A stretch of 64,000 nt of DNA from Planctomycetota bacterium (GTDB lineage Bacteria > Planctomycetota > UBA1135 > UBA2386): contig JBKAGP010000001.1 in the NCBI GenBank assembly GCA_046290465.1, positions 864,001-928,000 of the forward strand, in the 5' to 3' direction. A model generated the notes under the pieces. The model did no database searches, was not told the origin of the DNA, and saw only the letters and a list, made by a program, of their open reading frames with translations. Positions 834-17,011 of the stretch are shown here, piece after piece (within the stretch, counting starts at the first letter, position 1; the number at the start of each line of letters is the position of its first letter). Both the position numbers and the translations under genes were made by a program.

Positions 834-1862
834 TCACTTGCCGGACTCCTGCGACTTCCGCTCTTCTTCGTTGCGCCAGCGCATCGTGTAGGCCGTCGTC
901 TCCAGCGGCGAGATCGGCTGCTGCTCCAGGTCGGCGTCGATCTCGGCCCGCACCTGCTCGAACGGCACGTCGCGGCCGGGACGGTGCTCGAGGCAGTAGA
1001 CCACGAACCAGCGCTGCTCGCCGCCCCAGGTGGCCTCGAACGGCTCGCAGACCTCGCCGGCCTGCAGCTCGAACGCGTGGGTCGCGGCCGGGTGCCGGAA
1101 GCCCTCGCCGAAGGCCGGCAACAGGCCGCCGTCGCGACGCGACGGGTCCTCGGACCAGCGCAGCGCCAGCGTCGCGAAGTCGGCGCCGACCCGCACCTTG
1201 TCGACGACCTCCTGGGCGACCTTGCGGTCCTTGTGCACCAGGAACCGCACCTGCACGCGGTCCTCGCGCAGCGCCAGGTAGCGCAGCACGTAGCCCTGGT
1301 AGAGCCGCTGCGCCGTGCGCAGCCGCAGGGCCGCCTGCCAGTCCCCTTCGCGCATGCCGAACAGCCGCCAGACGTAGTCAACGAACGTCACGCCCTCGAG
1401 CTCGGCCTGCACCTGCCGGCGGAGTTCGCGTTCTTCCTCGGACGCCAGCTCCTCGACGCGCGCTTCGCTGACCCGGATGCCGTACTGCTCGGCATGGCGC
1501 GCCACCAGCACGTCGAACACCAGCAGGTCGACCGCCGACAGCGCCAGCTTCGGGTGCGCGCTCAGCAGCCGCGTGTAGGCGTGGCTCTGCCGCAGCACCA
1601 GCGAACCGACGCGCGCGACCTCGGCGTCGCCGGCAGCCGGATCCGGCAGCAGGATCTCGGGGCCGAGGCCCTCGGCGAAGCGCGGCGGCTGCGGTGCGGC
1701 GATGACCGGCGGCTGGTCGGGCAGCGGGTCACGGCCGCCGCCGCGCGTGCCGTCCCCGCCACCGAGCGGCGGCAGCCGTTGGGGCCCGCCGGCGCACGCG
1801 GCCAGCGACAGCACCGCCAGCAGCAGGCAGCGCCGGTGCCCTCGGCGAGCCGGCACCGGCAC
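834..1862 (-). CDS. PpiC/parvulin-type peptidyl-prolyl isomerase lipoprotein (SurA/PrsA-like foldase)
   Basis: GTG overlapping upstream TAG; lipobox LSLAAC; rotamase motif GADFATLALRWSEDPSRRDGGLL...F; FEQVRAEI. Confidence 0.8.
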   Translation of the reverse strand: MPVPARRGHRRCLLLAVLSLAACAGGPQRLPPLGGGDGTRGGGRDPLPDQPPVIAAPQPPRFAEGLGPEILLPDPAAGDAEVARVGSLVLRQSHAYTRLLSAHPKLALSAVDLLVFDVLVARHAEQYGIRVSEARVEELASEEERELRRQVQAELEGVTFVDYVWRLFGMREGDWQAALRLRTAQRLYQGYVLRYLALREDRVQVRFLVHKDRKVAQEVVDKVRVGADFATLALRWSEDPSRRDGGLLPAFGEGFRHPAATHAFELQAGEVCEPFEATWGGEQRWFVVYCLEHRPGRDVPFEQVRAEIDADLEQQPISPLETTAYTMRWRNEEERKSQESGK

Positions 1863-3361
1863 TAGTACGCCTTGAAGCTGCGCACCCACTTGGTGTTCTG
1901 GCAGAGGTAGCACTTCATGCGCACCATCTTGCCCTCGGGGCCGATCTCCGGGGTGGTGCCCGCGCCGTAGCACGAGATGCACTGCTGCGCGGTCGCGAAC
2001 TTGACCTTCAGCTGGCCGCCGTACTCGGCGTAGTAGGCCCGCAGCCAGCTGGCCTGCTCGGACTTGCTGGCGTCGCTCCACCAGCCCTCCTCGGTCTGCT
2101 CGCGCTGGCCGCCCTGCTGGGCCTGGCCGCGGCGGCGTTCCATCGCCTGCCGCAGCAGCTTGGCGAAGCGCTCGATGTTGCGGTCGTTGCCGCCACCGGC
2201 GTTGTCCTGCTTGTTGGCGTCCTGCTTGTCCTTGGCCTTGCCGGCGGCCGTGTCCTTGAGGATCTCCTTCTCGCCGAGCACCCACGAGCCGACGCCGTAG
2301 GCGAAGTACTCGGTGCGCTTGCCGATCGGGTACTCCTCGCGCTTCTCCCACATCGACTTGATCTCGGCCTCCTCGAGCTCGAGCGACTTGACCAGCCGTT
2401 CGACGATCTTGTCGGTCATCTCGTTCTCGGCGAAGTCGCGCGCCGCCTGCAGCGTCAGGCCGCCCTCGGAGATCGCCTTCTTGGCGACCAGCTGGATCGA
2501 CTTGCGCCACTGGTCAGCGACCTTCTGGGTCAGGTAGCGATCGCGGGCCTTGTCGAAGCGGTCCTTGGCGCGATCGAACTCGGCCTTCAGCTTGCTGTTC
2601 GGAAACTCCTTCTCGAACGTCGCGACCAGCTCGACGCCCTTCTGGAAGTCCTTCAGCTTGCCGCGGCTGCGGTAGGCCTGCAGCTGCTCGATCATGCCCA
2701 GCTCCTTGGCCGCGGCCTTGTAGCGCTTCAGCCGGTCGATCAGCTTGTCGAGCCGGGCCGGATCGGTGGCGTTGCCGAGGTCCTTGGCCTGGTCGAGGTG
2801 CTCCGAGGCGCGGTCGTAGTCGCGGAACTTGACCAGCTCCTCGGCCAGCAGCATGTGCTTGTTGGCGTCCTCACCGGGCGCGAACCTGGCGAGCGCGTCG
2901 GTGTAGAACTCCTCCTTGGTGTAGACCTGCGTGGCCGGCACCTCGATCGTGCGCACGCCCTTCAGGTTGCGGCGCGGGACCGGATAGGGCACGCCCTTGG
3001 CCTGCACGACCAGCGGATCGCCCGACGGGTCGGTGATCCGGCCGATCACGGTCTGGCGGGTGCCGTTGCTCAGGTAGACGACCTCGGTCGCGCGCACCAG
3101 GACCTCGTCCTGGGCGTCGCCGATCAGGTCGAACTCCTTCTTCCAGCGGGTCGCGCTGGCCGTGCTGAGGTGGTCCCAGCGCAGGTCGAGCATGCCGCCG
3201 TTGTCGAGGCGGCGCACGCGCAGGCCTTCGCCGTCGGCGTTCTCGACCGACGCCAACAGCACGCGGCCGTCGGCGAGCTGCACGGACTGTGCGGTCGCCT
3301 GCGGCAGCAGGAACGCGAACAGCGCCGCCGCGGCGGCGAGGACGGGGAGCAGACGTTGCAT
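1862..3361 (-). CDS. Secreted hypothetical protein with helical core and C-terminal CxxCxGxG...CxxC zinc-finger-like motif (alternative starts 3367/3370)
   Basis: Signal peptide ending ATA-Q; CISCYGAG...KCYLCQNTK; GAGGTG upstream of ATG 3361. Confidence 0.75.
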   Translation of the reverse strand: MQRLLPVLAAAAALFAFLLPQATAQSVQLADGRVLLASVENADGEGLRVRRLDNGGMLDLRWDHLSTASATRWKKEFDLIGDAQDEVLVRATEVVYLSNGTRQTVIGRITDPSGDPLVVQAKGVPYPVPRRNLKGVRTIEVPATQVYTKEEFYTDALARFAPGEDANKHMLLAEELVKFRDYDRASEHLDQAKDLGNATDPARLDKLIDRLKRYKAAAKELGMIEQLQAYRSRGKLKDFQKGVELVATFEKEFPNSKLKAEFDRAKDRFDKARDRYLTQKVADQWRKSIQLVAKKAISEGGLTLQAARDFAENEMTDKIVERLVKSLELEEAEIKSMWEKREEYPIGKRTEYFAYGVGSWVLGEKEILKDTAAGKAKDKQDANKQDNAGGGNDRNIERFAKLLRQAMERRRGQAQQGGQREQTEEGWWSDASKSEQASWLRAYYAEYGGQLKVKFATAQQCISCYGAGTTPEIGPEGKMVRMKCYLCQNTKWVRSFKAY

Positions 3362-3398
3362 CGACATCACCTCTTGGATCTAGCTGGTTCGGGGGGCG

Positions 3399-3869
3399 CT
3401 AGCGGGGAGCCTCCGCGGCCCCTTCCTGGAACGACAGGACCCGGTCGCGCATCGGCAGCTGCCGCGGCACGATCCGAAGGAACTGCTCGACCACCGGCTC
3501 GCCTTCTTCAAGCCACCTGGCCTCGATCTTGACGAGCCACAGCAGCGGCCGGTTCTCGTCCTCGGTCGCCGTGGCCGACCACGTCATGCCGGGGAAGCCC
3601 GGCACCGGCTGGTCGATCAGCGGCACGAACTCAAGCTGGTCCGGCGTGCTGCTGCCGCTGACCGAGCGGATCGACTCGTAGCGCACGCGGTGCATCGCGA
3701 GGTCGCACAGCGCGGTCAGCTCGTGGCGCGCGTCGGTGGTCCGCCGCTGGCTGATGCTCGACGACAGCGCGCCGAGCAGCGCGGTCACGCCGAACAGCAG
3801 GATCGCCAGCGCCGCCAGCATCTCGGCGAGCGTGAAGCCGCCTTCGTCTCGGTTGGTTCGGCTAGCCAT
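3399..3869 (-). CDS. Prepilin-type minor (pseudo)pilin, PilV/GspI-like
   Basis: MASRTNRDEGG|FTLAEMLAALAILLFG class III signal peptide; 156 aa; LWLVKIEARW terminal strand. Confidence 0.85.
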   Translation of the reverse strand: MASRTNRDEGGFTLAEMLAALAILLFGVTALLGALSSSISQRRTTDARHELTALCDLAMHRVRYESIRSVSGSSTPDQLEFVPLIDQPVPGFPGMTWSATATEDENRPLLWLVKIEARWLEEGEPVVEQFLRIVPRQLPMRDRVLSFQEGAAEAPR

Positions 3870-5088
3870 TCCAGTCGTCCTTGGCGTGCAGCACGGGCAC
3901 GACGAACTCGACCGTGCGGCCGACGTTGACGACCGTGCCGGCCTGGTGTTCGAGGATCTTGGTGGCGCGCTGGCCGCGCTTGCAGCCGACCAGGCGGTCG
4001 CCGTCGAGCTCCGCGTAGCGGATCCACTCGGCACCGAGCTTGACGTAGCCGCCGTCCGGGTTGCCCGGGAACGACGTGCCGTCGTACAGGTAGATGCTGG
4101 TGTCCTCGGCGCCGAGGAAGCTCGCCAGCACGCCCTCGGGGCTCGCGTCGCGGTCCTGCGCCACCACCACGCGCACCAGGATGCCGTGCGGATGGATGTC
4201 GTCGGTCGGGTCGTCCTCGCTGGCAGGGCCGAGGTCGAACGCGAACTCGCCGCCGCTCTGCCGGTCGACCAGCCAGCCGCCGCGCGCGCTGTCCCAGATC
4301 GCCTGCGGGAACTGCAGGTTGCCGGCGGCACCCGACTGGTAGCCGTGCAACGGCCCGCGCTCGTCGCCCCACGACGTCGTGCGCTGCGACCACAGGCCGA
4401 ACTCGACGTGCAGCAGGTCCTGCAGGATCGGCTCGGTTAGCTCGAAGACGGTCAGGCCCGGCAGCTCGTCGCCGCCCGGCACGATCACGTCGAACGGATC
4501 GACGAAGCTGTCGACGCCGGCGGGGATCTGCTGGCCCGGCAGGAACCAGCCGGCGCGCAGTTCGAGCAGCGCGTCGTCGTCGCCCTCCTGGCGCCACGGC
4601 AGCATCAGCAGGTTGCCGATGCCGCGCAGCGGTTCGACCGCGGCCCGCTTCTGGACCTCGGCGACGATCTCCTCCGGCGTCAGCCCCGGGTCCTGCTCGA
4701 ACACGTCGGCGGCCAGCCGCTTGCCGACGATGGCGAGCTCGCGGGCCGGATCGAGGTGCACTGCGCCGCGCAGCACCTGCACCAGCGTCGCGCCCCGCTC
4801 GGGCGCGCGCGGCAGGCCGATCGGCAGCATCTGCACGACCAGGCGGTCCTCGACCTCGGTGCGGTCGCGGCCGGTCGAGCTGCCGCGCAGGCGTGAGAGT
4901 TCCTGACGCACGACCTGCTGGGCGCGCGCGCCGCGGTCGGCCAGCACCTGGCTGGTCTCGCCGTCCCGGAACATCGTCAGGCCACTGTCGACCAGCGACA
5001 CCAGCATCACCAGGAAGCCGCTCAGGATGCCCATCACGACCAGCAGTTCGATCAGGGTGAAGCCGTGCTGTTGCGTGCGTGCGTTCAT
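3862..5088 (-). CDS. Prepilin-type minor (pseudo)pilin, PilW/GspJ-like, 408 aa, with one C-terminal beta repeat
   Basis: MNARTQQHG|FTLIELLVVMGILSG; ATGA overlap with upstream gene. Confidence 0.85.
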   Translation of the reverse strand: MNARTQQHGFTLIELLVVMGILSGFLVMLVSLVDSGLTMFRDGETSQVLADRGARAQQVVRQELSRLRGSSTGRDRTEVEDRLVVQMLPIGLPRAPERGATLVQVLRGAVHLDPARELAIVGKRLAADVFEQDPGLTPEEIVAEVQKRAAVEPLRGIGNLLMLPWRQEGDDDALLELRAGWFLPGQQIPAGVDSFVDPFDVIVPGGDELPGLTVFELTEPILQDLLHVEFGLWSQRTTSWGDERGPLHGYQSGAAGNLQFPQAIWDSARGGWLVDRQSGGEFAFDLGPASEDDPTDDIHPHGILVRVVVAQDRDASPEGVLASFLGAEDTSIYLYDGTSFPGNPDGGYVKLGAEWIRYAELDGDRLVGCKRGQRATKILEHQAGTVVNVGRTVEFVVPVLHAKDDWNG

Positions 5089-8000
5089 CGCGCGGTCACC
5101 TGCTCGTCGAGGATGCGGCTCTGGCCTTCGTACTGCACGCGCACGTCCTCGACCCGCGCCGACGTCTTCCAGCCGTGCTGGGTGAACGCCTGCAGGTCGA
5201 GGCAGCCGGGCTGGTAGACCGTGTGGAAGCGGACCTCCAGGCGCGATGCCTGCCGGCCGATGCGGTGCGGCTTGCTGTCGGACGAACCGCCGGAGAACTC
5301 CCACAGCCCGGGGAACTCGTCGGGCACCGCCGTCCACGGCGCCAGGCTGTCGGTGCGCACCCGGCAGATCACGCGCACGCGCGGATCGATGGTCTCCTCG
5401 CGCCACTGCAGGTCGCGGTAGTAGACCGGCGCCTCGTTGGTCGTGAACTGGAAGTAGCTCAGCTCCGGATCGTCGCTGAAGTCCGCGTAGCGGTCCCAGT
5501 GACGGAACGGGAACTGGATCACCACCTCGCCGCTCGCGGCTCCCTGCGGCGCCGTGCCGTAGCGGCCGCGGAACAGGCCGCGCGCCGCCGACGTGCTGGT
5601 GTCGACGGTGCCGTCCGGATTCGGCGGATACCAGTTGGGCATCTCGAGCGTGTTCGCGTTGCGCCGCGACCAGCTGTAGTGCAGCAGTTCCTGGCCCATC
5701 AGCAGCGTGCCCGCGAGCGGCAGCGGCCCGATGTCCTGCACCGTCAGCACCGACTCGTTGCCGCCGACGCCGCCGGCCAGGATCGCCGCCGGCCGGTGCG
5801 ACAGGAACTTGACCCGCGCGCCGCGGTCGTGGCCGCGCGCCTCGGTGTTCAACAGGCCGCGACCGTTGTTCGCGATCGTGAACACGCCGTTGGCGCGCGC
5901 CGAGTACGCCATCACCTCGTCGTCGACCTGGATCAGGCCACCGGACTCCGGGAACCTGGCGCTGAGGTCGGCGCCGCCGGCCCACAGCGCCCCGAGCGAC
6001 GTGTTGGTGAAGAACGGGTTGGTCGTCAACTGCTGCGCGTTGGCGTCCATGATCTCGTCGAGCACCAGGTCGGGCGCGACGTGCGAGACCACCTCGACCT
6101 CGTCGACGACGCCCTGCATCTGCTGCTCGCCGTTGACGCCGCCGCCGATCGACGGGTTCGGACAGAAGGCCGCCGGCAGCTCGCCGCTCGGGAACTTGAC
6201 GATCCGGTCGTACTGGCGCGGATCCTGGATCTGGGTGTTCTGCGGCGGGCCGATGTACTGGTTGCGCACCTCGTCGCGGAACGCGATCAGCTGGAACGGC
6301 TTGGGCCCGAACAGCTCGGGCGGCGTGCGGTCCTGCTGCAGGTTGTCCGAGCCGAACCGGCGCGCCCCCCACGTGCAGGTGTGCCACTCGACCGCCGGCC
6401 GCGACGTGCCGCTCGCGACCGAGCCCTGCACCAGAGCGACGCGGTCGTGGCGTCCGACCCGGCCGGTGTAGGCGCCGTAGTTGCCCCACAGCAGCTGCAC
6501 CCGCTGGCACTGCGTCACCTGCGCGTTGTTCTGCGGGTGCGACGACGTGCCGGTGAACGGATCGCCGCGGAACGCCAGCCGGCGACGCGCCCAGTGGATC
6601 TGCGGGAACGTGCTCTCGAGCTGCGGCGTGTAGCCGATGAAGTTGGCCGACGCGGTGACCGTGCCCCACGGCGGCGTGGTCGGCACCGTCGGGGCGTCGG
6701 GGCCGAGCTGGCCGATGCCGACCCGGGTGCGCGTCACGGTCCGGGTCAGCTCCTGGAACAGGCTCTGCCAGGCGCTGCGGTTGCCGCGCACCAGGAAGCG
6801 GTTGTCGGCGATCGCGTCGTAGCGCACCCACTCGAGGTCGGCGTCCTGGCCGGCCGGCAGCAGCTGCACCCACTCGCTGGTGTTGGTGACCGCCGGGTCC
6901 CAGATGACGTTGGCGTTCTGCACCGTGATCGACACCGGCACCACCCACAGGATGCGCGTCGGCAGGTCGTCCCAGGTGCCCTCGCCACCGGCGAGCTGCC
7001 AGTCGTTCGGGTAGTCGGTGATGAACTTGCGGGCCTGGGCGTTGTAGAGATCGTTGCTGATCCGGTTGTCCTCGCCCGGCAGCGTCTGCGCGCGCTGCAC
7101 GTTGACCAGCCGCGTGCCCTGCCGCGACGCGTAGCGGATCAGTTCGATGCCGCCGACCTCGGCCGGCGTGCCGCTGATCTGGCCGTTGGTGTTGTTCTCG
7201 AAGCCGATGCGCTCCTGCAGCAGCAGCGCGTAGCCGCCGCTGGTCGAGAACGCGCTGGCGATCTCGTCGGACGCGTTCGGCGGCGGCTGGTCGTCGCCGG
7301 TCGGCACCGGGTCGGCGAGCTCGAGGTCGCCGGTCCAGTTCTCGTCGATGCCAACGCCGACCGGGATCGGCGGGCCCTGCAGCGGCACCAGCGAGATCGG
7401 ATCGGGGTTGCTGACGAAGCCGCGCGCGACCGCGAACTGGCCGATCGCGTCGGCCAGCTGGGTCTTGCCGACCATCATCGGCGTGTCTTCGGTCAGCACC
7501 GCGCCGTAGCCGTACAGCTCGACCAGCGAACCGACCGGGTGCTCCGGGAACACGTCGAGGTTGAGGCCCTGGAACTGCGGGTCGTTGACATCGACCGTCG
7601 GTTCGCCGTTCTGGTCGACCGGGATGTTCGGGCGGTGCTCGCGACCGATCTGGCGCGCGCCGCGCCCGCCGAGCGAATCGCGCCACTCGCAGACGAACGT
7701 GTTGCCGCTGATCGACGAGTACTCGAACAGCTCGAGGCCGATGCGCAGCACGCCGACCTGCGGAAAGTTCTCGGTCGACTCGACGGTGATGCTGAGGAAC
7801 CGTTCGTTGCCGTTGGTGGCGTTGGGGTCCTGGCCGTAGCCGACCGAGTTGTTGGCCAGCGTCGGGTCGAACGCCGGGATCGGCGCCGACAGGTAGGTGC
7901 AGTAGTTGCGCTTGCCGCGCGTCATGCCATCGACGAACACCGACATGTCGCCGGGCCGGCCGGTCGGCGCGCTGACGTTGAGGTGCACCGGCGTGTTGGC

Positions 8001-10268
8001 CGGCAGGCCGAGTTCGGCGAGCGGCAGGTTGACCTGCACCGCGGTGCGCTCGACGCCGGCCGGCGAGTCGCTCGGGTTGGGGTCGATGCCGGCCTCGTCG
8101 ATCACTTCGACCACCAGGTTGCCGTCGCGAGAGAGCACTGCGAGCCGGTTGCGGTCCGGGTCGCCGTCACCGTGGTCGAACAGGATCCGGTTCTCGAGCG
8201 TCTGCGGCTCGAGCCAGAACGAGGTCGCGAACCGCCCCATGAAGCCGCCGTCCACCGAGAACGGGAACGAGATCTGGTCGTGGCGACGGTTGCCGCCGGT
8301 CTGCGGCTGGCCACCGGGCTCGGTCGGCCCGGTGTTGTTCATGATGTAGGGGCCTTCCTTCTGCACGTCGCGGCCGCGCCGGTTGGGACCGAACGAGAAC
8401 GACTCGAGGCCGACGATGCCCTGCGCACCGCGCCACTGGCCGCGTCGCGAGATCGACGTCGCCGGCTCGATGCCGGAGTCGGCCGGATCGTCGACCGCGT
8501 AGCGGGCTGCGCCGAGGCCCATGCTCGGGTAGGCGATCGGCACCAGATGCGGCAGGTAGCGCGAGGCCGGGTCGTTGCCGGTCGAGGTCGGCTGCAGGTG
8601 GCCGAGGTTGATCGGCGACGTCAGCCAGAACGGCGACCGACGATCGAGCACGAACGCGTCCTCGAACTCGATCTGCGTCTCCCAGCGGCGCTCCATCTGG
8701 AAGCCGGGCAGGATCGCGGCCTTGCCGGTGCGTTCGTGGCGGCCGACCACGCCCGGCGCGACCACGCTGCGCTTCTTGCTGGCGGCGGCGCGGTAGGTCA
8801 CCCACGGCCCCGACTTGAAGCAGAGCGGCGCGGTGCCCATCTCGAGCACGCTGTCGCGGCCGGTGCGCACGTTGCGGTACAGGTCGACCCACTTGTTGCG
8901 GCCCTGGTTGTTGCCCTCGGCCTGCAGCTTCGGCGCGAAGAAGCGCTCGACCAGGTCCTGCCAGCCGGTGAACGGGCCCCCGCCCGCCACGCCGGTCGCT
9001 TGGAAGCGCAGCATCACGATCTCGTCGGCCAGCTCGGCGGCGGCGCGCGGCGAGATGTTCGGCGGCGCGCTGCTGCGGCGCTGGTTGTCGGCCGGGATCT
9101 GCAGGCCGTCGCTGCGGCGCACGTGCGCGAACAGCGCGGTCAGCACCTCGCGCGGCGCGGTGTTGACGTTGACCGGTGCCGGCACCAGCGGCTCGACCAC
9201 CGTGTCGACGGCCGGGAAGCCCTTCTGCACCGGCATCAGCAGGTCGAGATGGAACACCGACGGCAGCTGCAGCTGGGCCCGGCCCGGCTGCTGGGTCGCC
9301 GCCCGCATCAGCACCCCGTACTCGGACTCACCGGTGGCGACGTTGCGGATCCGGACCGTGCTGCCGGCCCCGAGGTGCAGCGCCGACTTGACCGTCAGGC
9401 GCCGCGACATGCCGGCCTGCAGCTCGTTGAAGACGCGCTCGGGGCGCCCCCACGACGGCGCCGTCTCGGCCTGCGCGTCGACCGCGAACGCCCGCGCGAA
9501 CGCGTCCATCTCGGCGGCCGTGAACGCCCCCATCTCGGCCTTCTGGATCTCGAGCAGCTCGCCGACGCTCTTGTACGGCACCCGCTTGCCGTCGCGATCC
9601 GGCCCGAAGAACGGCCAGATCGCCGCCAGCACGCAGCGGTAGTCGAGCACCAGCGCCTGCTGGCGCACCCCGGCGGTGCCGTCGGCGAAGCCGTATTCCT
9701 GCAGCAGGCCGCGCTGCACGCCGAGCAGCGAGCTGCCGTCCTTGCTGTCGTAGCTGACGACCTCGTTGGCGAGCCACAGGTAGCCCTGTTCGGGCAGCTT
9801 CGACGCGTCGTCGACGACCATCGTGGTCGCGTCGGGTTCGAAGTCCTCGCCCAGGCGCGTCGCGGTGCCGATCACGTTGGCGAGCAGCAGCGGGGACGCC
9901 GAGTCCAGCGACAGGAAGCGCTGCAGGTCGGTGACCTCGCCGCCGAGCAGCACGCGGCCGTCCTCGCGGATCGCGTCGAACGCCTCGGGCAGGTCGACGC
10001 CGGCCGGCCACTCGTCGAGGCCGTCGTAGTCGGGCGTCTCGTCGAACGCCGGGTGCGACATCGCGACGTCGGCCAGCAGCAGGTCGCGCACGCTCGCCGA
10101 GGCCTGCTCGGTGGCAGCCTGGTCGACGTCGCGCATGGCCGCGTCGGCGCCGACGCTCATCGACACCGCGAACGGCAGCGCCAGCAGCATCAGCAGGGTC
10201 AACGCGAACAGCACGGCGAGCAGGGCCAGGCCCCGTTCGTCCCGCTCCGGATGCACGTCACGGATCAT
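5085..10268 (-). CDS. Giant (1727 aa) GspK/PilX-like prepilin with split LamG-like domain and repeated beta modules; putative tip adhesin
   Basis: ERG|LALLAVLFALTLLMLLA (no Glu at +5, typical of GspK/PilX); VNVNTAPREVLTAL GspK-like motif; FATSFWL...VFVDG and IGG...QGVVDEVEV. Confidence 0.8.
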   Translation of the reverse strand: MIRDVHPERDERGLALLAVLFALTLLMLLALPFAVSMSVGADAAMRDVDQAATEQASASVRDLLLADVAMSHPAFDETPDYDGLDEWPAGVDLPEAFDAIREDGRVLLGGEVTDLQRFLSLDSASPLLLANVIGTATRLGEDFEPDATTMVVDDASKLPEQGYLWLANEVVSYDSKDGSSLLGVQRGLLQEYGFADGTAGVRQQALVLDYRCVLAAIWPFFGPDRDGKRVPYKSVGELLEIQKAEMGAFTAAEMDAFARAFAVDAQAETAPSWGRPERVFNELQAGMSRRLTVKSALHLGAGSTVRIRNVATGESEYGVLMRAATQQPGRAQLQLPSVFHLDLLMPVQKGFPAVDTVVEPLVPAPVNVNTAPREVLTALFAHVRRSDGLQIPADNQRRSSAPPNISPRAAAELADEIVMLRFQATGVAGGGPFTGWQDLVERFFAPKLQAEGNNQGRNKWVDLYRNVRTGRDSVLEMGTAPLCFKSGPWVTYRAAASKKRSVVAPGVVGRHERTGKAAILPGFQMERRWETQIEFEDAFVLDRRSPFWLTSPINLGHLQPTSTGNDPASRYLPHLVPIAYPSMGLGAARYAVDDPADSGIEPATSISRRGQWRGAQGIVGLESFSFGPNRRGRDVQKEGPYIMNNTGPTEPGGQPQTGGNRRHDQISFPFSVDGGFMGRFATSFWLEPQTLENRILFDHGDGDPDRNRLAVLSRDGNLVVEVIDEAGIDPNPSDSPAGVERTAVQVNLPLAELGLPANTPVHLNVSAPTGRPGDMSVFVDGMTRGKRNYCTYLSAPIPAFDPTLANNSVGYGQDPNATNGNERFLSITVESTENFPQVGVLRIGLELFEYSSISGNTFVCEWRDSLGGRGARQIGREHRPNIPVDQNGEPTVDVNDPQFQGLNLDVFPEHPVGSLVELYGYGAVLTEDTPMMVGKTQLADAIGQFAVARGFVSNPDPISLVPLQGPPIPVGVGIDENWTGDLELADPVPTGDDQPPPNASDEIASAFSTSGGYALLLQERIGFENNTNGQISGTPAEVGGIELIRYASRQGTRLVNVQRAQTLPGEDNRISNDLYNAQARKFITDYPNDWQLAGGEGTWDDLPTRILWVVPVSITVQNANVIWDPAVTNTSEWVQLLPAGQDADLEWVRYDAIADNRFLVRGNRSAWQSLFQELTRTVTRTRVGIGQLGPDAPTVPTTPPWGTVTASANFIGYTPQLESTFPQIHWARRRLAFRGDPFTGTSSHPQNNAQVTQCQRVQLLWGNYGAYTGRVGRHDRVALVQGSVASGTSRPAVEWHTCTWGARRFGSDNLQQDRTPPELFGPKPFQLIAFRDEVRNQYIGPPQNTQIQDPRQYDRIVKFPSGELPAAFCPNPSIGGGVNGEQQMQGVVDEVEVVSHVAPDLVLDEIMDANAQQLTTNPFFTNTSLGALWAGGADLSARFPESGGLIQVDDEVMAYSARANGVFTIANNGRGLLNTEARGHDRGARVKFLSHRPAAILAGGVGGNESVLTVQDIGPLPLAGTLLMGQELLHYSWSRRNANTLEMPNWYPPNPDGTVDTSTSAARGLFRGRYGTAPQGAASGEVVIQFPFRHWDRYADFSDDPELSYFQFTTNEAPVYYRDLQWREETIDPRVRVICRVRTDSLAPWTAVPDEFPGLWEFSGGSSDSKPHRIGRQASRLEVRFHTVYQPGCLDLQAFTQHGWKTSARVEDVRVQYEGQSRILDEQVTAR

Positions 10269-11224
10269 CGGCCAGCCTCCACGGCGTCCAGGTCCTCGTA
10301 GGTGATCACGGGGGCATCGACCGCTTCGCCGCGCTTGTCGTAGGTGAAGCGGAAGGTCTCGGTCGGCTGCAGCTCCATCGGCAGGTACTGCGGCGGCGCG
10401 AACGCGAACGCCAGCAGCCGCACCTCGTCGACGATGCCCGGGATCGCGGAGCCGACCGGCGAGATGTCGAGCGCCATGTTCTGCTCCTGCTCGGGCACGC
10501 CGCTCGCCGCTACGCGCGCGAACTCGCGCTCGTCGACCTGGAGCCAGAACGAACGGCCGTCGTAGCCGACCTCGAGCGTCGACCAGCGCCGCAGCGGCAT
10601 CGACAGTTGGCTCTGCAGCGACTTGCGCTGCGCCTGGCCCTGGCCGTCGGTCACCCGCAGGCGCGCATCGGGCCGCAGGTCGTCATCGAGGCGCACTTCG
10701 AGCATCGGCGGCATCTCGAGCACGACGCAGTCCTGACGTTCTTCGAGGAACAGGTCGAGGCGCAGCACGAAGCCGTCGCGCAGGTCCGCCAGCCGCGGCG
10801 GCAGCGGCCAGCGCAGCAGCGGCACCTTGTCGTCCTCGAGCGGCCGGCGCGCCGCGCCGAACCGGCCCGCAGTGACCTCTTCGCCGGCGAGGGCGGGGCG
10901 CATGCGCGCATCGAGGAACGGCTGGCCGGGCTCGAACTGGAACGACACCACCGGCTCGAGCAGCCGCGACTGCACCATCGCCGGCTCGCCCTCGGCGCCG
11001 GGCCGCACCCAGACCTCGGTCGGCACGCCTTCGGCGCGGGCCGTCATCTGCGCCGCCCGTCGCTCGCCGCGCAGGATCGTCTGCGCGACCATGTCGGGGT
11101 CGGTGCGGCCGAGGTAGCCGAGGCCGATGCCCATCAGCACCGAGATGATGCCGATGACGGCCAGCAGCTCGAGCAGCGTGAAGCCCGCCTCGGCCGCGTG
11201 GAATCGGGGTGCGGCGCGGTGCAT
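10265..11224 (-). CDS. Prepilin-type FimU/GspH-like minor pilin with inserted LamG-like domain
   Basis: AG|FTLLELLAVIGIISVLMGI; AQMTARAEGVPTEV; WSTLEVGYDG...LQVD...PGIVDEVRL; FTYDKRG. Confidence 0.8.
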   Translation of the reverse strand: MHRAAPRFHAAEAGFTLLELLAVIGIISVLMGIGLGYLGRTDPDMVAQTILRGERRAAQMTARAEGVPTEVWVRPGAEGEPAMVQSRLLEPVVSFQFEPGQPFLDARMRPALAGEEVTAGRFGAARRPLEDDKVPLLRWPLPPRLADLRDGFVLRLDLFLEERQDCVVLEMPPMLEVRLDDDLRPDARLRVTDGQGQAQRKSLQSQLSMPLRRWSTLEVGYDGRSFWLQVDEREFARVAASGVPEQEQNMALDISPVGSAIPGIVDEVRLLAFAFAPPQYLPMELQPTETFRFTYDKRGEAVDAPVITYEDLDAVEAGR

Positions 11225-11225
11225 G

Positions 11226-11882
11226 TCAGTTGGACGGCCAGACGACGTCGTCGTCAGTGCCGAAATCGAGATCGGGGCCGGCGCTGAGCAGCTGGAACTT
11301 GCGCTGGCCGTAGTACGAACCGTCCTCGCGCTTCTTCGCCTTGACGGTGACCGCCGCCTCGCCGACCGCCGGAACGACCTGCTGCGGCTTGTCGATGTTG
11401 AGCTTGCTGAAGTAGGCCATCGGCGTGCCCCAGCCGTCGGCGACCTCGTAGCGGCCGCGCATGCCGTCGAGCAGCGGCAGCGCTTCGCCGTGGCTGTCCT
11501 CGTCGGTGTTGATCAGCGCGTCGCCGAGGTCGGCCAGGCTGGTGCCGTCCTTCTTGTTCTGGCTCAGCATCACCACCAGCGACTCGATCCCGGTGTTCTT
11601 GCCGTTGTCGGCCTTCCAGGTCGGCTTCTTGTTGGCGCGCAGGTACTTGAGGTCGTCGCTCGGGTAGGTCCCGTTGACCCGCTCGAACTTCTCGATCGCG
11701 TTCTTCAGCTGCAGCATGCGCGCCTCGGTCGCCGCCTGGTCGGCGGCGCCGCGGGTGTCGAGCACGCGCGGCAGCAGCACCGCGGCGAGCGTGCCGATGA
11801 TCGCGATCACGATCAGCAGTTCGATCAGCGTGAAGCCGCGCTGGCCGGCCAAAGGGGCGGAGAGATCGGAACGAACGGTCAC
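11226..11882 (-). CDS. GspG-like major pseudopilin
   Basis: RG|FTLIELLIVIAIIGTLAAVLLP; AIEKF...GTYPS; DGWGTPMAY; FQLLSAGPDLDFGTDDDV. Confidence 0.85.
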   Translation of the reverse strand: MTVRSDLSAPLAGQRGFTLIELLIVIAIIGTLAAVLLPRVLDTRGAADQAATEARMLQLKNAIEKFERVNGTYPSDDLKYLRANKKPTWKADNGKNTGIESLVVMLSQNKKDGTSLADLGDALINTDEDSHGEALPLLDGMRGRYEVADGWGTPMAYFSKLNIDKPQQVVPAVGEAAVTVKAKKREDGSYYGQRKFQLLSAGPDLDFGTDDDVVWPSN

Positions 11883-14596
11883 TAGCGGGCCTCCTTGCGG
11901 CGCTCGAGTCGGTAGTTGTCGAAGGCGACGTCGGTGTGCGCCCGCTTGTTGCCGGACGTGAACAGGATCGTCTTCAATGCCGTGTTGGTGCTGCGGGTCA
12001 GCAGCTTGAGCTGCTGGCTGTGCACCATCGCATCGTTGCAGTAGACCTGCAGGATCAGCTGCCGGGCGTCCTCGTCACCGTTGGGCACGACCCGCAGCTC
12101 GAGCTCCTGGGAGCCGCTGCGCATCAGGCTCTGCGGCAGCTTCTTGCGCACCGGCTCGGCGGCGTTGTTGCCGCCGGCGCCGTCGACGACGGTGACCATC
12201 GGCTGGCCCTGGTAGACGCCGACCCGCGCCGAGAAGTCGACGCCCTGGCGGCCGCGATGGATCTCGATGCCGATGCCGTTCCACGACTCGCTGGTGTCGG
12301 TGCCGGGCAGCACCTCCAGCTCGACGCTGGTGGCGAGGAAGTTCTTGCCGCGCGCGATCGCGTCGACCCGCTCGGCATAGACCTCGCCAGCTCCGCTCGT
12401 CGAGAACGTGCCATCGAAGACCAGGCGGCCGTCGCGGATCCTGGCGCCGAGCGCCTTGTCGGCATCCCAGCTCCACAGGTCCCCCGGCGCATCGCGGTCG
12501 AAGCTGTCGCCGAGCGCCTCCTTCTGCGCGTGCGTCTCGATCGCCGACAGCGTCGCGCCGGCCCACTTGCCGAGCTCGCTGTCGCGGCCGAGGTCGCGTT
12601 CGACGCGCTCGAGCGTGGTGACGGCGTCGTCGACGCGGTTGCGGCTGTAGGCGACCACCGCCAGCGCGCCCTTGGCGTAGCCGCGCGCGGCGTCGTTCTC
12701 GACCAGGTCGCGCGCAGCCTCGAACGCGGCGCGGGCGGCGCGGCGGTCGGCGGCCTGGAACGCGCGCAGGCCCTGCAGCTCGAGCAGTTCGAGCTCCGGC
12801 TGCGGCGACAGCGCCACGGCCCGGTCCTGGTAGCGTCGCGCGGCCAGCCAGGCGGCCGCCTGGTCGGTGCCGGCCGCGTTCTGACCGAGCTCGTCCTGCA
12901 CCGCCGACATCTCGGCGATCGCGTGCACGAAGTCGTCGCGCACCCGCAGGCACTGCGTCAGCGCCTGCTCGGCGTCGCCGTACTGGCCCATCAGGCGCAG
13001 CGTGCGGCCCTTCAGGTAGAGCGCGTAGGGATCGTTGGGCGAAGCCTCGAGGGCCCGGTCGCAGTAGGCCAGCGCGGCCTCGAACTGGCTGGTGCGCGAG
13101 AACAGCAGCCCGAGGCCGGTCCAGGCACGGTGGCGCAGCAGCGGGTCCTCGTCGGCGATCTGCGTCAGCAGCGTGTAGGCCTCCTGCCACGAACCGCCGT
13201 TGAGCAGGCAGGCGGCGCGGCCGAGCCGGGCGGCGGCCGCGTCGTCGCTGGTCGCGGCCTGCTCGAACATCGAACGGGCGGCCGCCATGTCACCGGACGC
13301 GTAGGCGACGCAGCCGCGCAGGTAGCTGCGACCCGGCTCGCTCGGCGCCAGCTGGCGCGCGGCGGCGAGGTCACCGACGGCGAGCTGGCAGCCGACGATC
13401 GTGCGCACGATCTCGGCGCGCGCGACCGGGTCCTGCACGCTGCCGAGCGTCTGCTGGGCGCGGCGCGCGGCGTTGAGCGCCGGGATCGTGCGACCGCGCT
13501 TGCGGTAGAACTCGGCCAGCGTCCCGTGCGTCCTCGCGTCGGTCGGCGCCTTCTCGGTCGCCGCCCGCAGGTGCTGCTCGGCCTCGATCCACAGGCCGAG
13601 GCGCGCCTTGATGACGCCGAGGCCCATCAGGCGGAACGCGTCGGCCTCGTTGTCGCCGGTCGTTCCCTCGAGCAGCTTGACCTCTTCGGCGAGGTTGCCC
13701 ATCGCCTGCAGCACGCGCTGCATGATCCGGCGGCCGTCGAGGTTCTGCCCCGACATCTGCAGGTAGGCCTCCGACTGCTTCAGCGCCTCGTCGTAGACCC
13801 ACGCCTCGACCTTGGCCTGCTCGAGCAGCCACTCGATCAGCTGCAGGCGTTCGCCCTGGCGGCTGGCGTCGTTGGTCGGTACCGCGCGCACGCGGCGGGT
13901 CACCTCGTTGCGCAGCGTGTTTGCCAGCTCGAAGCGCGCCACCGGCTGGTTGCCGTCGCCGAACGGTTGCGGGCTGCCGAGCTTGCGCTTCTGCAGGCTG
14001 AACACGCGGAAGCGGATCTTGACGCCGTCGAAGGTGCGCCGCTGCTCGAGCTCGAACGGGTCGATACCCATCGCCGAGTCGAGCACGCCGTAGAACGGCT
14101 TGTTCAGGCCCTGCACGTAGAGGCGGTCGTAGAGCTTGGCCGCCTGCTCCTCGGTCATCGGCCCGACGCCGGTGTCCTGTGCGTCCTGCTCGCCGTCGCC
14201 GACCTCCTCGCCGTCGCCGGCTTCGGCGCCGCCCCCACCGGTGCGGTCGATGGTGACGTCCTCGACCTGTGCGCCGTCGAGGCGCAGCAGCCACGAGTGG
14301 CGGAAGTCGGGCCCGAAGTCGAGCGGCATGCCGCACAGCGACAGCGGCGGACGCGGCGGGAACTCGAGTTCGCGCGGCGGCAGCGGCTGGGTCTCGCTCG
14401 GCTCGGTGAAGAAGTTGCGCCGCGCCATCTCGGCGGCGTCGCCGTCGACCAGCGACGCCTCCTGGAACGCGCTCGGCTCGACCTCGATCGGATCGGGGTT
14501 GTAGCTGACGCGCAGCGGCTGGACCTCGAAGTAGTCGGTCGAGCAGTAGGCCGCCAACAGCACGACCAGGATCAACAGCACCTGTTCCTTGCGCAT
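11882..14596 (-). CDS. Membrane-anchored or secreted TPR-repeat protein (904 aa) with C-terminal beta-sandwich
   Basis: N-terminal hydrophobic segment; TPR units such as AWTGLGLLFSRTSQFEAALAYCDRALEASPNDPYALYLKGRTLRLMGQYGDA. Confidence 0.8.
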   Translation of the reverse strand: MRKEQVLLILVVLLAAYCSTDYFEVQPLRVSYNPDPIEVEPSAFQEASLVDGDAAEMARRNFFTEPSETQPLPPRELEFPPRPPLSLCGMPLDFGPDFRHSWLLRLDGAQVEDVTIDRTGGGGAEAGDGEEVGDGEQDAQDTGVGPMTEEQAAKLYDRLYVQGLNKPFYGVLDSAMGIDPFELEQRRTFDGVKIRFRVFSLQKRKLGSPQPFGDGNQPVARFELANTLRNEVTRRVRAVPTNDASRQGERLQLIEWLLEQAKVEAWVYDEALKQSEAYLQMSGQNLDGRRIMQRVLQAMGNLAEEVKLLEGTTGDNEADAFRLMGLGVIKARLGLWIEAEQHLRAATEKAPTDARTHGTLAEFYRKRGRTIPALNAARRAQQTLGSVQDPVARAEIVRTIVGCQLAVGDLAAARQLAPSEPGRSYLRGCVAYASGDMAAARSMFEQAATSDDAAAARLGRAACLLNGGSWQEAYTLLTQIADEDPLLRHRAWTGLGLLFSRTSQFEAALAYCDRALEASPNDPYALYLKGRTLRLMGQYGDAEQALTQCLRVRDDFVHAIAEMSAVQDELGQNAAGTDQAAAWLAARRYQDRAVALSPQPELELLELQGLRAFQAADRRAARAAFEAARDLVENDAARGYAKGALAVVAYSRNRVDDAVTTLERVERDLGRDSELGKWAGATLSAIETHAQKEALGDSFDRDAPGDLWSWDADKALGARIRDGRLVFDGTFSTSGAGEVYAERVDAIARGKNFLATSVELEVLPGTDTSESWNGIGIEIHRGRQGVDFSARVGVYQGQPMVTVVDGAGGNNAAEPVRKKLPQSLMRSGSQELELRVVPNGDEDARQLILQVYCNDAMVHSQQLKLLTRSTNTALKTILFTSGNKRAHTDVAFDNYRLERRKEAR

Positions 14597-14597
14597 G

Positions 14598-15401
14598 CTA
14601 CGCGTCCTCCTCTTGCTTCACGAACGCGATCCCCGACAGCGTCGCCTTGACCGTGATCGGCTCGCCCGGCCGCGCCGCCTCGGTCACCGTCAGGCGGTCG
14701 AGCACCAGCGTGCGGCCCGGCTTGCGGCACGACTCCAGGAAGTAGGCGAGCGTCGCCTCGTCGCACTGGAACTGCAGGTTGACGCGCTGCTGCTTGATCA
14801 GCTCGCTGATGTCGACGCCGCCGCGCCGGCGGCCCCGGCCGCGTCCGATCGTGCGCCGGCCGCGGTTGCTCTCGAGCTTGACGAACGCGATCGCGCTCAG
14901 CCCCTGGGCGTCCTCGTTCTCCTTGACGACGCGGTCGTGCGCGGCGAACAGCCGCTGCTGGGCCGCGTCGATCAGGTCGAGGCCGAACAGCGTGTCGCGG
15001 ATCTGGTCGATGCCGCTCGGCACCTCCCAGCTGATGTCGCTCTCCTCGACCAGCACGTCGCGGTCGCTCGCCGCGTTGACGATCTGCAGCCGCAGGTCGC
15101 GGCCGGTCTGGAACAGGTGGGTGTCGGCGGTGCCGGTCCACTGCCGGAACTTCGGCGCGACCTCGAAGGCCAGCTCCTTGGTCAGGCGCTCGCGCTCGGC
15201 GCCGAGCTTCTCGTTCTCATCCTGCGCGATCGACAGCGCCTCGCGGTTGTAGGCGTCGCGCAGGCGGTCCTGCTGGCGCGGGGTCGCGCCCGGCCCGGTC
15301 ACCGAGTCGATCACGGCGCTGCCGATCAGCCAGACGACCGCGCCGATCGCGCAGCCGACCAGCCACGGCTTGTTCTCCTGGGCGAATTCTCCGATGTCCA
15401 T
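14598..15401 (-). CDS. PilO/GspM-like inner-membrane pilus assembly protein (267 aa)
   Basis: MDIGEFAQENKPW + TM + coiled coil + ferredoxin-like end (VNLQFQCDEATLAYFLESC...LVLDRLTV...ITVKATLSGI); directly follows PilM-N. Confidence 0.65.
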   Translation of the reverse strand: MDIGEFAQENKPWLVGCAIGAVVWLIGSAVIDSVTGPGATPRQQDRLRDAYNREALSIAQDENEKLGAERERLTKELAFEVAPKFRQWTGTADTHLFQTGRDLRLQIVNAASDRDVLVEESDISWEVPSGIDQIRDTLFGLDLIDAAQQRLFAAHDRVVKENEDAQGLSAIAFVKLESNRGRRTIGRGRGRRRGGVDISELIKQQRVNLQFQCDEATLAYFLESCRKPGRTLVLDRLTVTEAARPGEPITVKATLSGIAFVKQEEDA

Positions 15402-17011
15402 CAGTTCGCCTCCAATTCGACGGTGAGCACGACGCGCTTGGCGCTGTCGGGGCTGGGACGTTCCTTCATGTCGGACACCAGCCGATCCTTGATCAGCGGA
15501 TCGGTGCGGAAGCTCTCGTAGAAGTTGACGATCTCGCGGCTCGGCTCGACGCCGTTGAGCTCCTTGGCCGCGAGCTCGACGGTCACGACCGGCAGCGCCT
15601 GGGCGCCGGCGCGGCCGCGCTTGTTGCCGACCTCGAACTTCTCGACCCACAGCTGCGGCTGCAGGTGCCGCGTGATCGCGCGCTGCACCCGCAGCACGCC
15701 GTGCAGCGGCAGCGCCCGCTGGCGCAGGTTCTGCACCAGCGCGCGGTCGATCTCGTTCTGCTCGATCAGCGCCGCGGCCTCTTCGTGGGTGCGGTTCTTG
15801 CCCGACACCATCTGCCGCATCTTGGTCTGGTAGCTGTTCTGCGCGGCCGCCGCCTCCTGGTTGTGGTTCACCTGCAGCGCGAACAGCGCCACGATCACCA
15901 CGCCGGCCAGGATGTTGAAGATCGTGCGCTGCTGGAAACGCTGCTTCTTGCGCACCGCCTCGGGCAGGATCTCGAGCGAATAGAGCGTGTCGTCGAGGCG
16001 GCCGACGGCGAGGCCGAGCGCGACCACGGCCTCGTGACGCATCTGCTCGAGCTGCTCGGCGTCGTCCGGCGGCAGCGCGCTCAGGTCGAGGTTGGCGAAC
16101 GGGTCGAACAGCTCGACCGGGCAGCGCAGGTTCTCGCGCAGCAGACCGCGCAGGCCGCGCAGGCGCGCGCCGCCGCCGCAGATCAGCACCTTGTCGAGGC
16201 GCAGGTCGCTGATCTTGGTCTGCGCCTTGCAGAACGACAGCGAACTGTTGATCGCCGCCGGGATCGACGTGGCCGCGCCGGCGGCGGCCATCGTGACCTT
16301 CTCGGCCTGGCCCGACTTGTAGTTGCCGCGACTGGCAGGATCGAGGTCGAGCAGGTCCTTCTTCAGCACCTCGGCCTTGCGCGCCGACACGTTGAAGTTG
16401 TTTGCGATCGCCTCGTCGAGCACCTTGGTGCCGCTGGTCAGGTTGCGCGCGAACAGCAGGTCGGTGCCGCGCACGATCGCCAGGTCGATGGTCTCGTGGC
16501 CGATGTTGACCAGCGCGACCACGGCGTCGGCGTCGACCGGCCCGCACTTCAGGTAGGCGTTGTAGAGCGCCGTGCAGTTGGGCACGAACGCCCCCACCGC
16601 GCCGCCACCGGCCACCACGTCGCCCTGCAGGCGTTCGAGCGCGTCGTCCTTGGCGAGCGCCAGCAGCACCGTGTCACTGCCCGACTCGTCGTCGATCGGC
16701 AGCAGGTTGTAGTCGGCCGAGAGCGCGCCGCCCGACTGTTGCGCCAGGTCCTGGATCTCCAGGTCCATCAGGTTGCGCAGCTGCCAGTCCGGGGTCGGCG
16801 GCACCTGGCTGTAGCGCAGCGTCATGTCGCGGCCGGCGAGGCCGCAGGTACTGTCCTTCAACGGGATGCCGGCTTCGGCCAGCGACATGTTGCCTTCGGC
16901 GCCCGGCAGGCCGGCGAAGCGCAGGACGCTGACGCCGTGCTTGCCGACCTGGGCGACGAGGACCTTGGCGCTGTGGCTGCCGATATCGACGGCGGTTGCT
17001 TTGCTTGCCAT
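15401..17011 (-). CDS. pilM: Type IV pilus assembly protein PilM fused to PilN-like domain
   Basis: AVDIGSHSAKV; ALVNIGHETIDL; VLICGGGARLRGL; VELFDPF; AVVALGLA; then LEILPE + TM + coiled coil + LWVEKF. Confidence 0.85.
   Translation of the reverse strand: MASKATAVDIGSHSAKVLVAQVGKHGVSVLRFAGLPGAEGNMSLAEAGIPLKDSTCGLAGRDMTLRYSQVPPTPDWQLRNLMDLEIQDLAQQSGGALSADYNLLPIDDESGSDTVLLALAKDDALERLQGDVVAGGGAVGAFVPNCTALYNAYLKCGPVDADAVVALVNIGHETIDLAIVRGTDLLFARNLTSGTKVLDEAIANNFNVSARKAEVLKKDLLDLDPASRGNYKSGQAEKVTMAAAGAATSIPAAINSSLSFCKAQTKISDLRLDKVLICGGGARLRGLRGLLRENLRCPVELFDPFANLDLSALPPDDAEQLEQMRHEAVVALGLAVGRLDDTLYSLEILPEAVRKKQRFQQRTIFNILAGVVIVALFALQVNHNQEAAAAQNSYQTKMRQMVSGKNRTHEEAAALIEQNEIDRALVQNLRQRALPLHGVLRVQRAITRHLQPQLWVEKFEVGNKRGRAGAQALPVVTVELAAKELNGVEPSREIVNFYESFRTDPLIKDRLVSDMKERPSPDSAKRVVLTVELEAN

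Follow-up and report, generated by a model that had tools for sequence, protein, structure and literature searches.

A phage-tail-like barrel repeated in two enlarged, probably filament-capping pseudopilins of Planctomycetota

In type II secretion systems (T2SS) and type IV pili (T4P), prepilins are cleaved, the minor components K, I and J assemble as the tip, and H joins this tip to the G fibre. ComZ of Thermus thermophilus, according to the accessible text of its report (PMC6561018), is a GspK-like tip pilin into which a large ligand-binding domain is inserted, and its tip position is assigned on steric grounds. We here analysed a related locus in a 64,000-nt stretch of the Planctomycetota bacterium contig JBKAGP010000001.1 (the window, to which the coordinates below refer; all of its listed features lie on the minus strand). 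A module of ~75 amino acids (aa) occurs there six times in a giant GspK/PilX-like minor pseudopilin of 1727 aa (P0001, 5085-10268, assigned from family profiles and orthologues) and once in its neighbour, a GspJ/PilW-like minor pseudopilin of 408 aa (P0002, or J, 3862-5088, assigned from the N_methyl motif and the GspJ fold of its model). On balance, we slightly favour the view that both carriers are enlarged GspK- and GspJ-like pseudopilins likely capping a type IV filament, the barrels formed by the module likely being scaffold or docking parts and a LamG-type fold being the predicted glycan binder.

The module had been proposed in a sequence-only reading, and all peptides quoted there were found at the positions given, each protein forming one open frame. 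When the seven segments were compared as single sequences, fewer than 10 of 1000 shuffles equalled the real score for 9 of the 21 pairs, and copy 4 was mostly non-significant. Since this comparison was weak and uneven, orthologues were collected for profiles. P0002 gave matches in 39 of 41 related genomes (15 near full length among the first family members listed, weaker across the order), while 20 order-level loci supplied 18 complete giants, and the first profiles held 19-20 orthologues per copy. With these, hhalign linked copies 1, 2, 5, 6 and J in all 10 pairs at 92.7-98.8%. Copy 3 reached 93% and 91% against copy 1 and J, and 25, 15 and 8% against copies 2, 5 and 6; copy 4 reached 61% against J and 2% or less against the other copies; all 84 copy-versus-control pairs stayed below 9%. 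Once about 100 orthologues were used, each of the six copies in the giant matched two outside profiles, one of 81 copies taken from other proteins (96.5-99.4%) and one of 42 virus-like copies (95.7-99.4%), against which eight control segments scored 0.8% or less. The training set of the profile that gathered these outside copies consisted of copies 1, 2, 5, 6 and J, without copies 3 and 4. Furthermore, the compact orthologues L051, L052 and L059 from other families carried six copies detectable by hidden Markov model (HMM) in the same 1+3+2 layout, and others of the 19 phylum-level giants showed only 3-5 at the same threshold. Copies 3 and 4 of the window protein are masked by insertions. The profile comparison thus bears out the proposed count of six plus one. 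The proposed locations were right as well, but copies 2, 3 and 4 extend further than had been stated, because their RG..T..H half sits past insertions.

A seventh, degenerate barrel inside the GspK-like core (aa 268-366, 9171-9467) is possible but unproven from the hhalign profiles, as its score was 59-70% with copies 1 and 2, 35% with the outside profile and 4% with the virus-like one. It follows the pattern LxV....F..G.tVRI..g..EY..V, without the RG..T..H motif. An eighth barrel, considered at aa 1254-1354, found no support. A profile search of the other genes of the same genome found no further module, the next best match having E 0.18.

The same reading had pointed to a resemblance to phage virion proteins, and this was indeed confirmed by PHROG, PDB profile and structure matches. 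PHROG virion, baseplate-wedge and tail families matched 23, 18, 13 and 12 of 51 module sequences, and the PHROG families related to the barrel include 4406, 1101, 708, 2885 and 11439; taken singly, copy 1 matched PHROG 4406 at 2e-5, and copies 3, 4 and 6 matched nothing better than E 0.05. The best PDB matches of the 51-copy profile were the Chi minor tail protein at the tail tip (8vjh_A, 2e-5) and the JBD30 tip protein (8rk3_o, 4e-3). The Pfam model PF23666 (Rcc01698_C) matched 7 of the 51 sequences at E ≤ 0.1, with 0.0025 as the best value, and no Pfam model covers the barrel well. By tblastn, the J copy matched 33 cyanophage and pelagiphage records at 33-46%, annotated as structural protein or tail tube B. 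An HMM search of the kind that the sequence-only reading had suggested retrieved phage structural families, and the matches also extended far beyond phage.

Structural superposition covered the J copy and copies 5 and 6, copies 1-4 being assigned by profile. The J barrel gave VIA Z scores of 10.1 to GP4 (8jov_1; root-mean-square deviation (rmsd) 1.8 over 71 residues), 9.9 to VP1 (9in6_M), 9.8 to Chi and 9.5 to JBD30, followed by weaker superpositions on a tail tube, tailspikes, the R4C megatron and lambda gpJ. At E ≤ 0.001, matches to predicted viral structures numbered 42. Similarly, copy 5 scored 9.7 to 8jov_1, 9.4 to 9in6_M and 9.3 to 8vjh_A (74-76 residues, rmsd 1.7-2.1), and copy 6 scored 9.3 to 8rk3_o (79 residues, rmsd 1.9). 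Foldseek against the PDB returned no clear whole-model match. A structure search of the ESM Atlas provided leads only, namely viral proteins, a Planctomycetota pilin cluster and a cluster with a type IX secretion system (T9SS) tail, all at TM scores of 0.82-0.84, and the best scores of its feature search, 0.78, were below the useful level.

The positions conserved in every copy (G, E, Y, RG, H and G) coincide with those conserved in the copies outside pilins, which points to the fold rather than to a pilus-specific site. In the accessible text on the JBD30 hub (PMC11445458), the small six-stranded barrel is described as stabilising baseplate architecture, and in that on the R4C megatron (PMC10276861), the fibre-binding domain contains the stretch 1196-1294 that matches our barrel. 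Together with the shared fold residues, these architectural phage parts led us to read the barrels as scaffold or docking elements, as far as those texts go.

We then turned to the identity of the carriers. The prepilin helix of the giant was class III and hydrophobic, with an invariant G13 and without Glu5, in all 34 aligned orthologues. PF03934 was detected in 14 of these 34 at E ≤ 0.01 (best 2e-5), the window protein itself falling under the Pfam cut-off, and XcpX (5vtm_X) was the best PDB profile match of the core, at E 0.058. The N-terminal core is thus likely GspK-like, judged from sequence. P0002 carries the PF07963 N-methylation motif above the cut-off, and its AlphaFold model (predicted local distance difference test (pLDDT) 85.5 overall) matched XcpW, EpsJ and GspJ with Z scores of 10.2, 9.6 and 9.0 over residues 36-395 (about 149 aligned, rmsd 4.2-4.5). 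Its barrel (aa 319-392, 3913-4134; pLDDT 82-96) is inserted ahead of the last pilin strand. The two proteins had earlier been named pilins, which holds, but they are better called GspK/PilX-like (the giant) and GspJ/PilW-like (the neighbour), and the GspJ fold of the small protein and the GspK motifs of the giant support the pilus-tip setting suggested for them. A complex prediction of I with K (13-520) and J (1-340, with half of the barrel and the last strand cut off) scored 0.54, the control scoring 0.51.

The GspK-like core of the giant spans aa 13-530 (8679-10232) and comprises the prepilin helix, the DxQ..L and NxNTA motifs and the closing strands, with barrel copy 1 (aa 135-211, 9636-9866, delimited by hhalign profiles) inserted. 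Beyond it, residues 670-1727 (1058 aa) were modelled by AlphaFold with pLDDT 90.9 and a predicted TM score (pTM) of 0.87. This model contains a LamG/pentraxin-type beta-sandwich, which matched pentraxin and laminin G structures with Z up to 11.3 (134-138 residues, rmsd about 3.2); family support came from PF13385, at 6.6e-8 in the orthologue P0185. The first part of the sandwich, recognised by this structural match, lies at aa 676-790 (7899-8243), and its closing strands, recognised from the model and from orthologue conservation, at aa 1355-1397 (6078-6206, KFPSGELP..G..DE). The two halves are ~565 residues apart, and between them lie copies 2-4 and a conserved beta domain. Copy 2, inside the LamG fold, has two insertions (aa 790-921, 7506-7901; profiles and model). 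Copy 3, also with insertions, occupies about aa 956-1085 (about 7014-7403; profiles and compact orthologues), and copy 4 about aa 1108-1253 (about 6510-6947; profiles and the strand pattern of the model), with an insertion of ~70 aa between EWVRYD and FRG..T..H. The conserved beta domain (aa 1254-1354, 6207-6509) has confident strands in the model and reached 0.6% against the module profile. Copies 5 (aa 1399-1490, 5799-6074) and 6 (aa 1494-1586, 5511-5789), both placed by VIA structural superposition, are followed by a C-terminal beta-sandwich-like domain (aa 1600-1727, 5088-5471), recognised by its strand pattern in the model and conserved in orthologues. The pTM of 0.87 over 1058 aa suggests that this part of the giant is predicted to form a single packed head instead of a chain of separate domains. 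In genome G217, the giant is spread over two overlapping frames (L050:8827-14458, plus strand), through a frameshift or an assembly error.

Outside the pilins, the module profile matched 18,923 of 1.84 billion cluster representatives (50% identity) at E ≤ 0.001. Of the best 150 clusters, 94 were giant orthologues or fragments (88 + 6), and the 56 others included phage tail-fibre-like proteins, PA14/FG-GAP proteins, the PilX-type pilins P0244 and P0138, and proteins of 4,000-5,800 aa with 15-24 copies that we labelled giant-virus-like; since this list is ranked by total score, it favours many-copy proteins and gives no viral share. A Bodo saltans virus protein was among the fold matches. Proteins in the P0123-P0139 range and others have 3,600-7,600 aa and 12-29 copies, some being giant-virus-like with tail-collar domains and others apparent planctomycete surface giants. 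Some of the 56 are giant proteins with an N-terminal LExLExR motif, which we take to be a planctomycete export signal; it had no match in the domain scan.

P0244 (PF14341) and P0138, unrelated pilins of PilX type, carry 5-6 barrels but lack the other main segments of the giant. As only the barrels are shared, the barrel seems, from these sequences, to have joined tip pilins more than once. Mean identity was 24-28% between pilin copies and phage-like or giant-virus-like copies (24-26% for the phage-like ones), and 23-27% between pilin positions, so that pilin copies are as distant from the phage-like copies as from one another. In a tree built with FastTree from 235 module copies over 76 columns, rooted at the midpoint and without a clade test, copies clustered by position, which held for 33 of 34 copy-6 sequences and 17 of 18 J copies. 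This clustering across lineages means that the duplications are older than the lineages carrying them, and the tree gives no direction of transfer. The earlier suggestion of virion-derived modules was therefore not upheld, given the 18,923 clusters with apparent cellular surface proteins and other PilX-type pilins among them and no signal of recent transfer; judged by its sequence distribution, the barrel is an old and widely shared domain, not a recent loan from phages.

Among Planctomycetota genomes at least 85% complete, the module was present in 158 of 201 and the N-terminal part of the giant in 129 of 201. The latter was not found in the searched genomes of several families, for example f13 (0 of 9) and f20 (0 of 10). 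In f13, 7 of the 9 near-complete genomes had barrel matches (single ones among the matches listed) and none had the giant, which indicates that the domain persists there in other proteins. Named homologues are hypothetical proteins, nearly all from Planctomycetota, and a single-sequence scan named close relatives only, mostly 'Planctomycetota bacterium'. Close homologues in records labelled Luminiphilus (L061) and Neolewinella (P0021) are probably misbinned contigs. We found no description of this pilus-tip system in the literature searched, which did not extend to subscription papers and bioRxiv supplements.

The two carriers belong to an operon that reads, from its upstream end, FHA protein (17078-19135), PilM-like protein with a C-terminal extension (15401-17011), a gene named PilO-position from its place only (about 14598-15240), TPR protein (11882-14596), GspG-like (pseudo)pilin (218 aa, 11226-11882; TIGR01710 2e-14, below cut-off), GspH/FimU-like pilin (319 aa, 10265-11224), giant, J, GspI/PilV-like minor pilin (156 aa, 3399-3869, from family profiles and locus comparison), a conserved 502-aa protein without family match (1862-3370) and a PPIC-type prolyl isomerase (about 834-1865). 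Up to the contig ends, the 20 order-level loci showed this order. Of the 20 phylum-level loci, 16 preserved at least H-K-J-I or K-J, and in the remaining 4 the giant alone was recognised. The 502-aa protein and the isomerase end the operon in most loci, and we would guess that the isomerase may help the giant to fold. The GspH-like pilin has an apparent LamG-type domain (a weak match, PF13385 E 0.066), which brings the enlarged pilins to three of five. An open reading frame at 2-802 encodes an acidic product with EQGAH and QEAQVD repeats, continues past the window start and had no Pfam match.

No secretin, ATPase or platform match fell inside the window, and the locus does not qualify as a canonical T2SS operon. 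The genome as a whole contains a separate canonical PilM locus, and matches in it numbered 7 for secretins, 13 for ATPases and 4 for PilT. The other type IV filament loci include a second GspK-like gene (G000:C1 5469857-5471521), a canonical PilM-to-secretin cluster (G000:C1 6093047-6098156), a secretin-ATPase-platform cluster with no pilins nearby (G000:C1 6371535-6377777) and a small pilin cluster (G000:C1 6564981-6567313).

By analogy with described systems, K, J and I would form the first-assembled tip of the filament, H would link this tip to a G fibre, the prepilins would be cleaved, and motor and secretin would be supplied from elsewhere in the genome. The head of the giant would then be displayed on the surface and adhere to particles or cells, with the barrels probably forming a scaffold or protein-docking surface around the LamG-type fold, a candidate glycan binder predicted from the model. 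Several findings weigh against this proposal. The giant scores only 21 bits on NF037980, whose cut-off is 130, a full-length family match thus failing for a protein of 1727 aa; its head, about 187 kDa and by our own arithmetic at least about 75 Å across if spherical, is large compared with the roughly 60 Å of a secretin pore (as given in the accessible text of PMC6561018); and the genome holds several other filament loci that may house the partner machine of the operon. As to the scaffold role, we infer that JBD30 residues 481-559 are the 'domain VI' barrel of PMC11445458. In tailspikes, too, the N-terminal part can contain a barrel fold (7w1c, Z 7.4; 6e0v, Z 6.2), and the long rows of tandem barrels in apparent surface proteins would be compatible with binding as well.

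The size of the head favours the main rival, a periplasmic piston of T2SS type, in which a G-H-K-J-I pseudopilus stays in the cell and the head recognises folded cargo, for example giant planctomycete surface proteins, and pushes it through a secretin. We regard this as possible, though rather doubtful. All the pilins are indeed closer to T2SS pseudopilins than to type IVa pilus (T4aP) pilins, no PilY1/PilC family match was found by Pfam and NCBIfam among 10-11 operon-region proteins (the PilO-position gene being outside the scan), and the stand-alone secretin-ATPase-platform cluster at C1:6.37 Mb also fits this view. However, the operon carries PilM-like, not GspL, genes, and PF05134 (GspL) was not found in the 94% complete genome; the minor pilins of the Thermus T4P also look pseudopilin-like in the accessible text (PMC6561018); and LamG domains and these barrels, by general knowledge and by our domain and fold matches, typically belong to exposed proteins. 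Alternatively, the barrels themselves might be multivalent adhesins offering seven weak sites for glycans, surfaces or cells, since arrays reach about 30 copies in giant proteins, keep company with FG-GAP, PA14, CBM5/12 and tail-fibre domains, and were used independently in two other PilX-type pilins. This appears unlikely, as the accessible literature describes no ligand for any copy and calls the solved examples stabilising or fibre-docking, and the copies have long, differing insertions and share only fold-type residues. The sequence-only reading had likewise taken the barrels for the binding parts, for which we found no support; the LamG fold, which it had not seen, is the better candidate.

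That a phage tail gene was captured and domesticated, or that a phage-mimic decoy was fused to the pilins, would account for the closest solved folds all being phage proteins and for the 33 phage records matching the J copy, yet we consider it very improbable. The phage family matches are confined to the barrels, and the gene context is not that of a prophage or gene transfer agent (GTA); codon GC is host-like, the third-position GC of the giant and J frames being 0.95-0.96; a search of viral contigs for relatives of the giant found none (0 of 24 hits of one short pattern were confirmed); and the copies group by position across lineages at only 24-28% identity to virus-like copies. Any transfer would thus predate the spread through the phylum, whatever its direction. 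A bolder extension of the displayed-tip proposal, which we offer as speculation with poor odds, is that much of the phylum carries a retractable phage-tail-like tip, whose barrels dock fibre or receptor-binding proteins as in phage hubs and which captures particles, prey or partner cells.

A domain map now exists for a probable filament tip that is conserved in about two thirds of the sampled Planctomycetota genomes and built of 'hypothetical' proteins. The barrel itself is a common domain, with about 19,000 clusters at 50% identity and no good Pfam model, and it connects phage tails with giant-virus-like proteins and with surface proteins of bacteria in a manner comparable to immunoglobulin-like domains. 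If the tip is displayed outside the cell, how a head of ~187 kDa crosses the secretin becomes a question.

Among known systems, the GspK-GspI-GspJ tip of the T2SS (XcpX-V-W; 3ci0, 5vtm; PF03934, NF037980) has the same G-H-I-J-K set with prepilin helices, a K without Glu5 and with the NxNTA motif, and a J with the GspJ fold (Z 9-10). In contrast, the present K exceeds the 307-position NF037980 model more than fivefold in length and bears six barrels and a split LamG fold, J has an inserted barrel, PilM-type genes replace GspL, and the operon lacks ATPase, platform and secretin. ComZ of T. thermophilus, PilB of S. sanguinis and CofB likewise have a pilin fold enlarged by inserted ligand-type domains, whereas here the inserted domains are others and far larger, and the same barrel sits on both K and J. 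The Verru_Chthon cassette (TIGR02596/98/99/2600) and the FimU-PilVWX-PilY1 set of T4aP are alike in having four minor pilins and one very large tip-type member; however, TIGR02600 (protein A) did not match the giant, and only the prepilin helices of the small pilins match the B, C and D models, far below cut-off, so that by family models the locus is neither a Verru_Chthon cassette nor one of PilY1 type. Finally, the small six-stranded barrel of phages (8rk3_o, 8vjh_A, 8jov_1, 9in6_M, 8gtc_M) has the same E, RG..T..H..G motif and fold, and the phage hub barrel, like the pilin barrel, sits as an insertion in another domain; unlike the phage hub barrels, the copies described here belong to chromosomal pilins.

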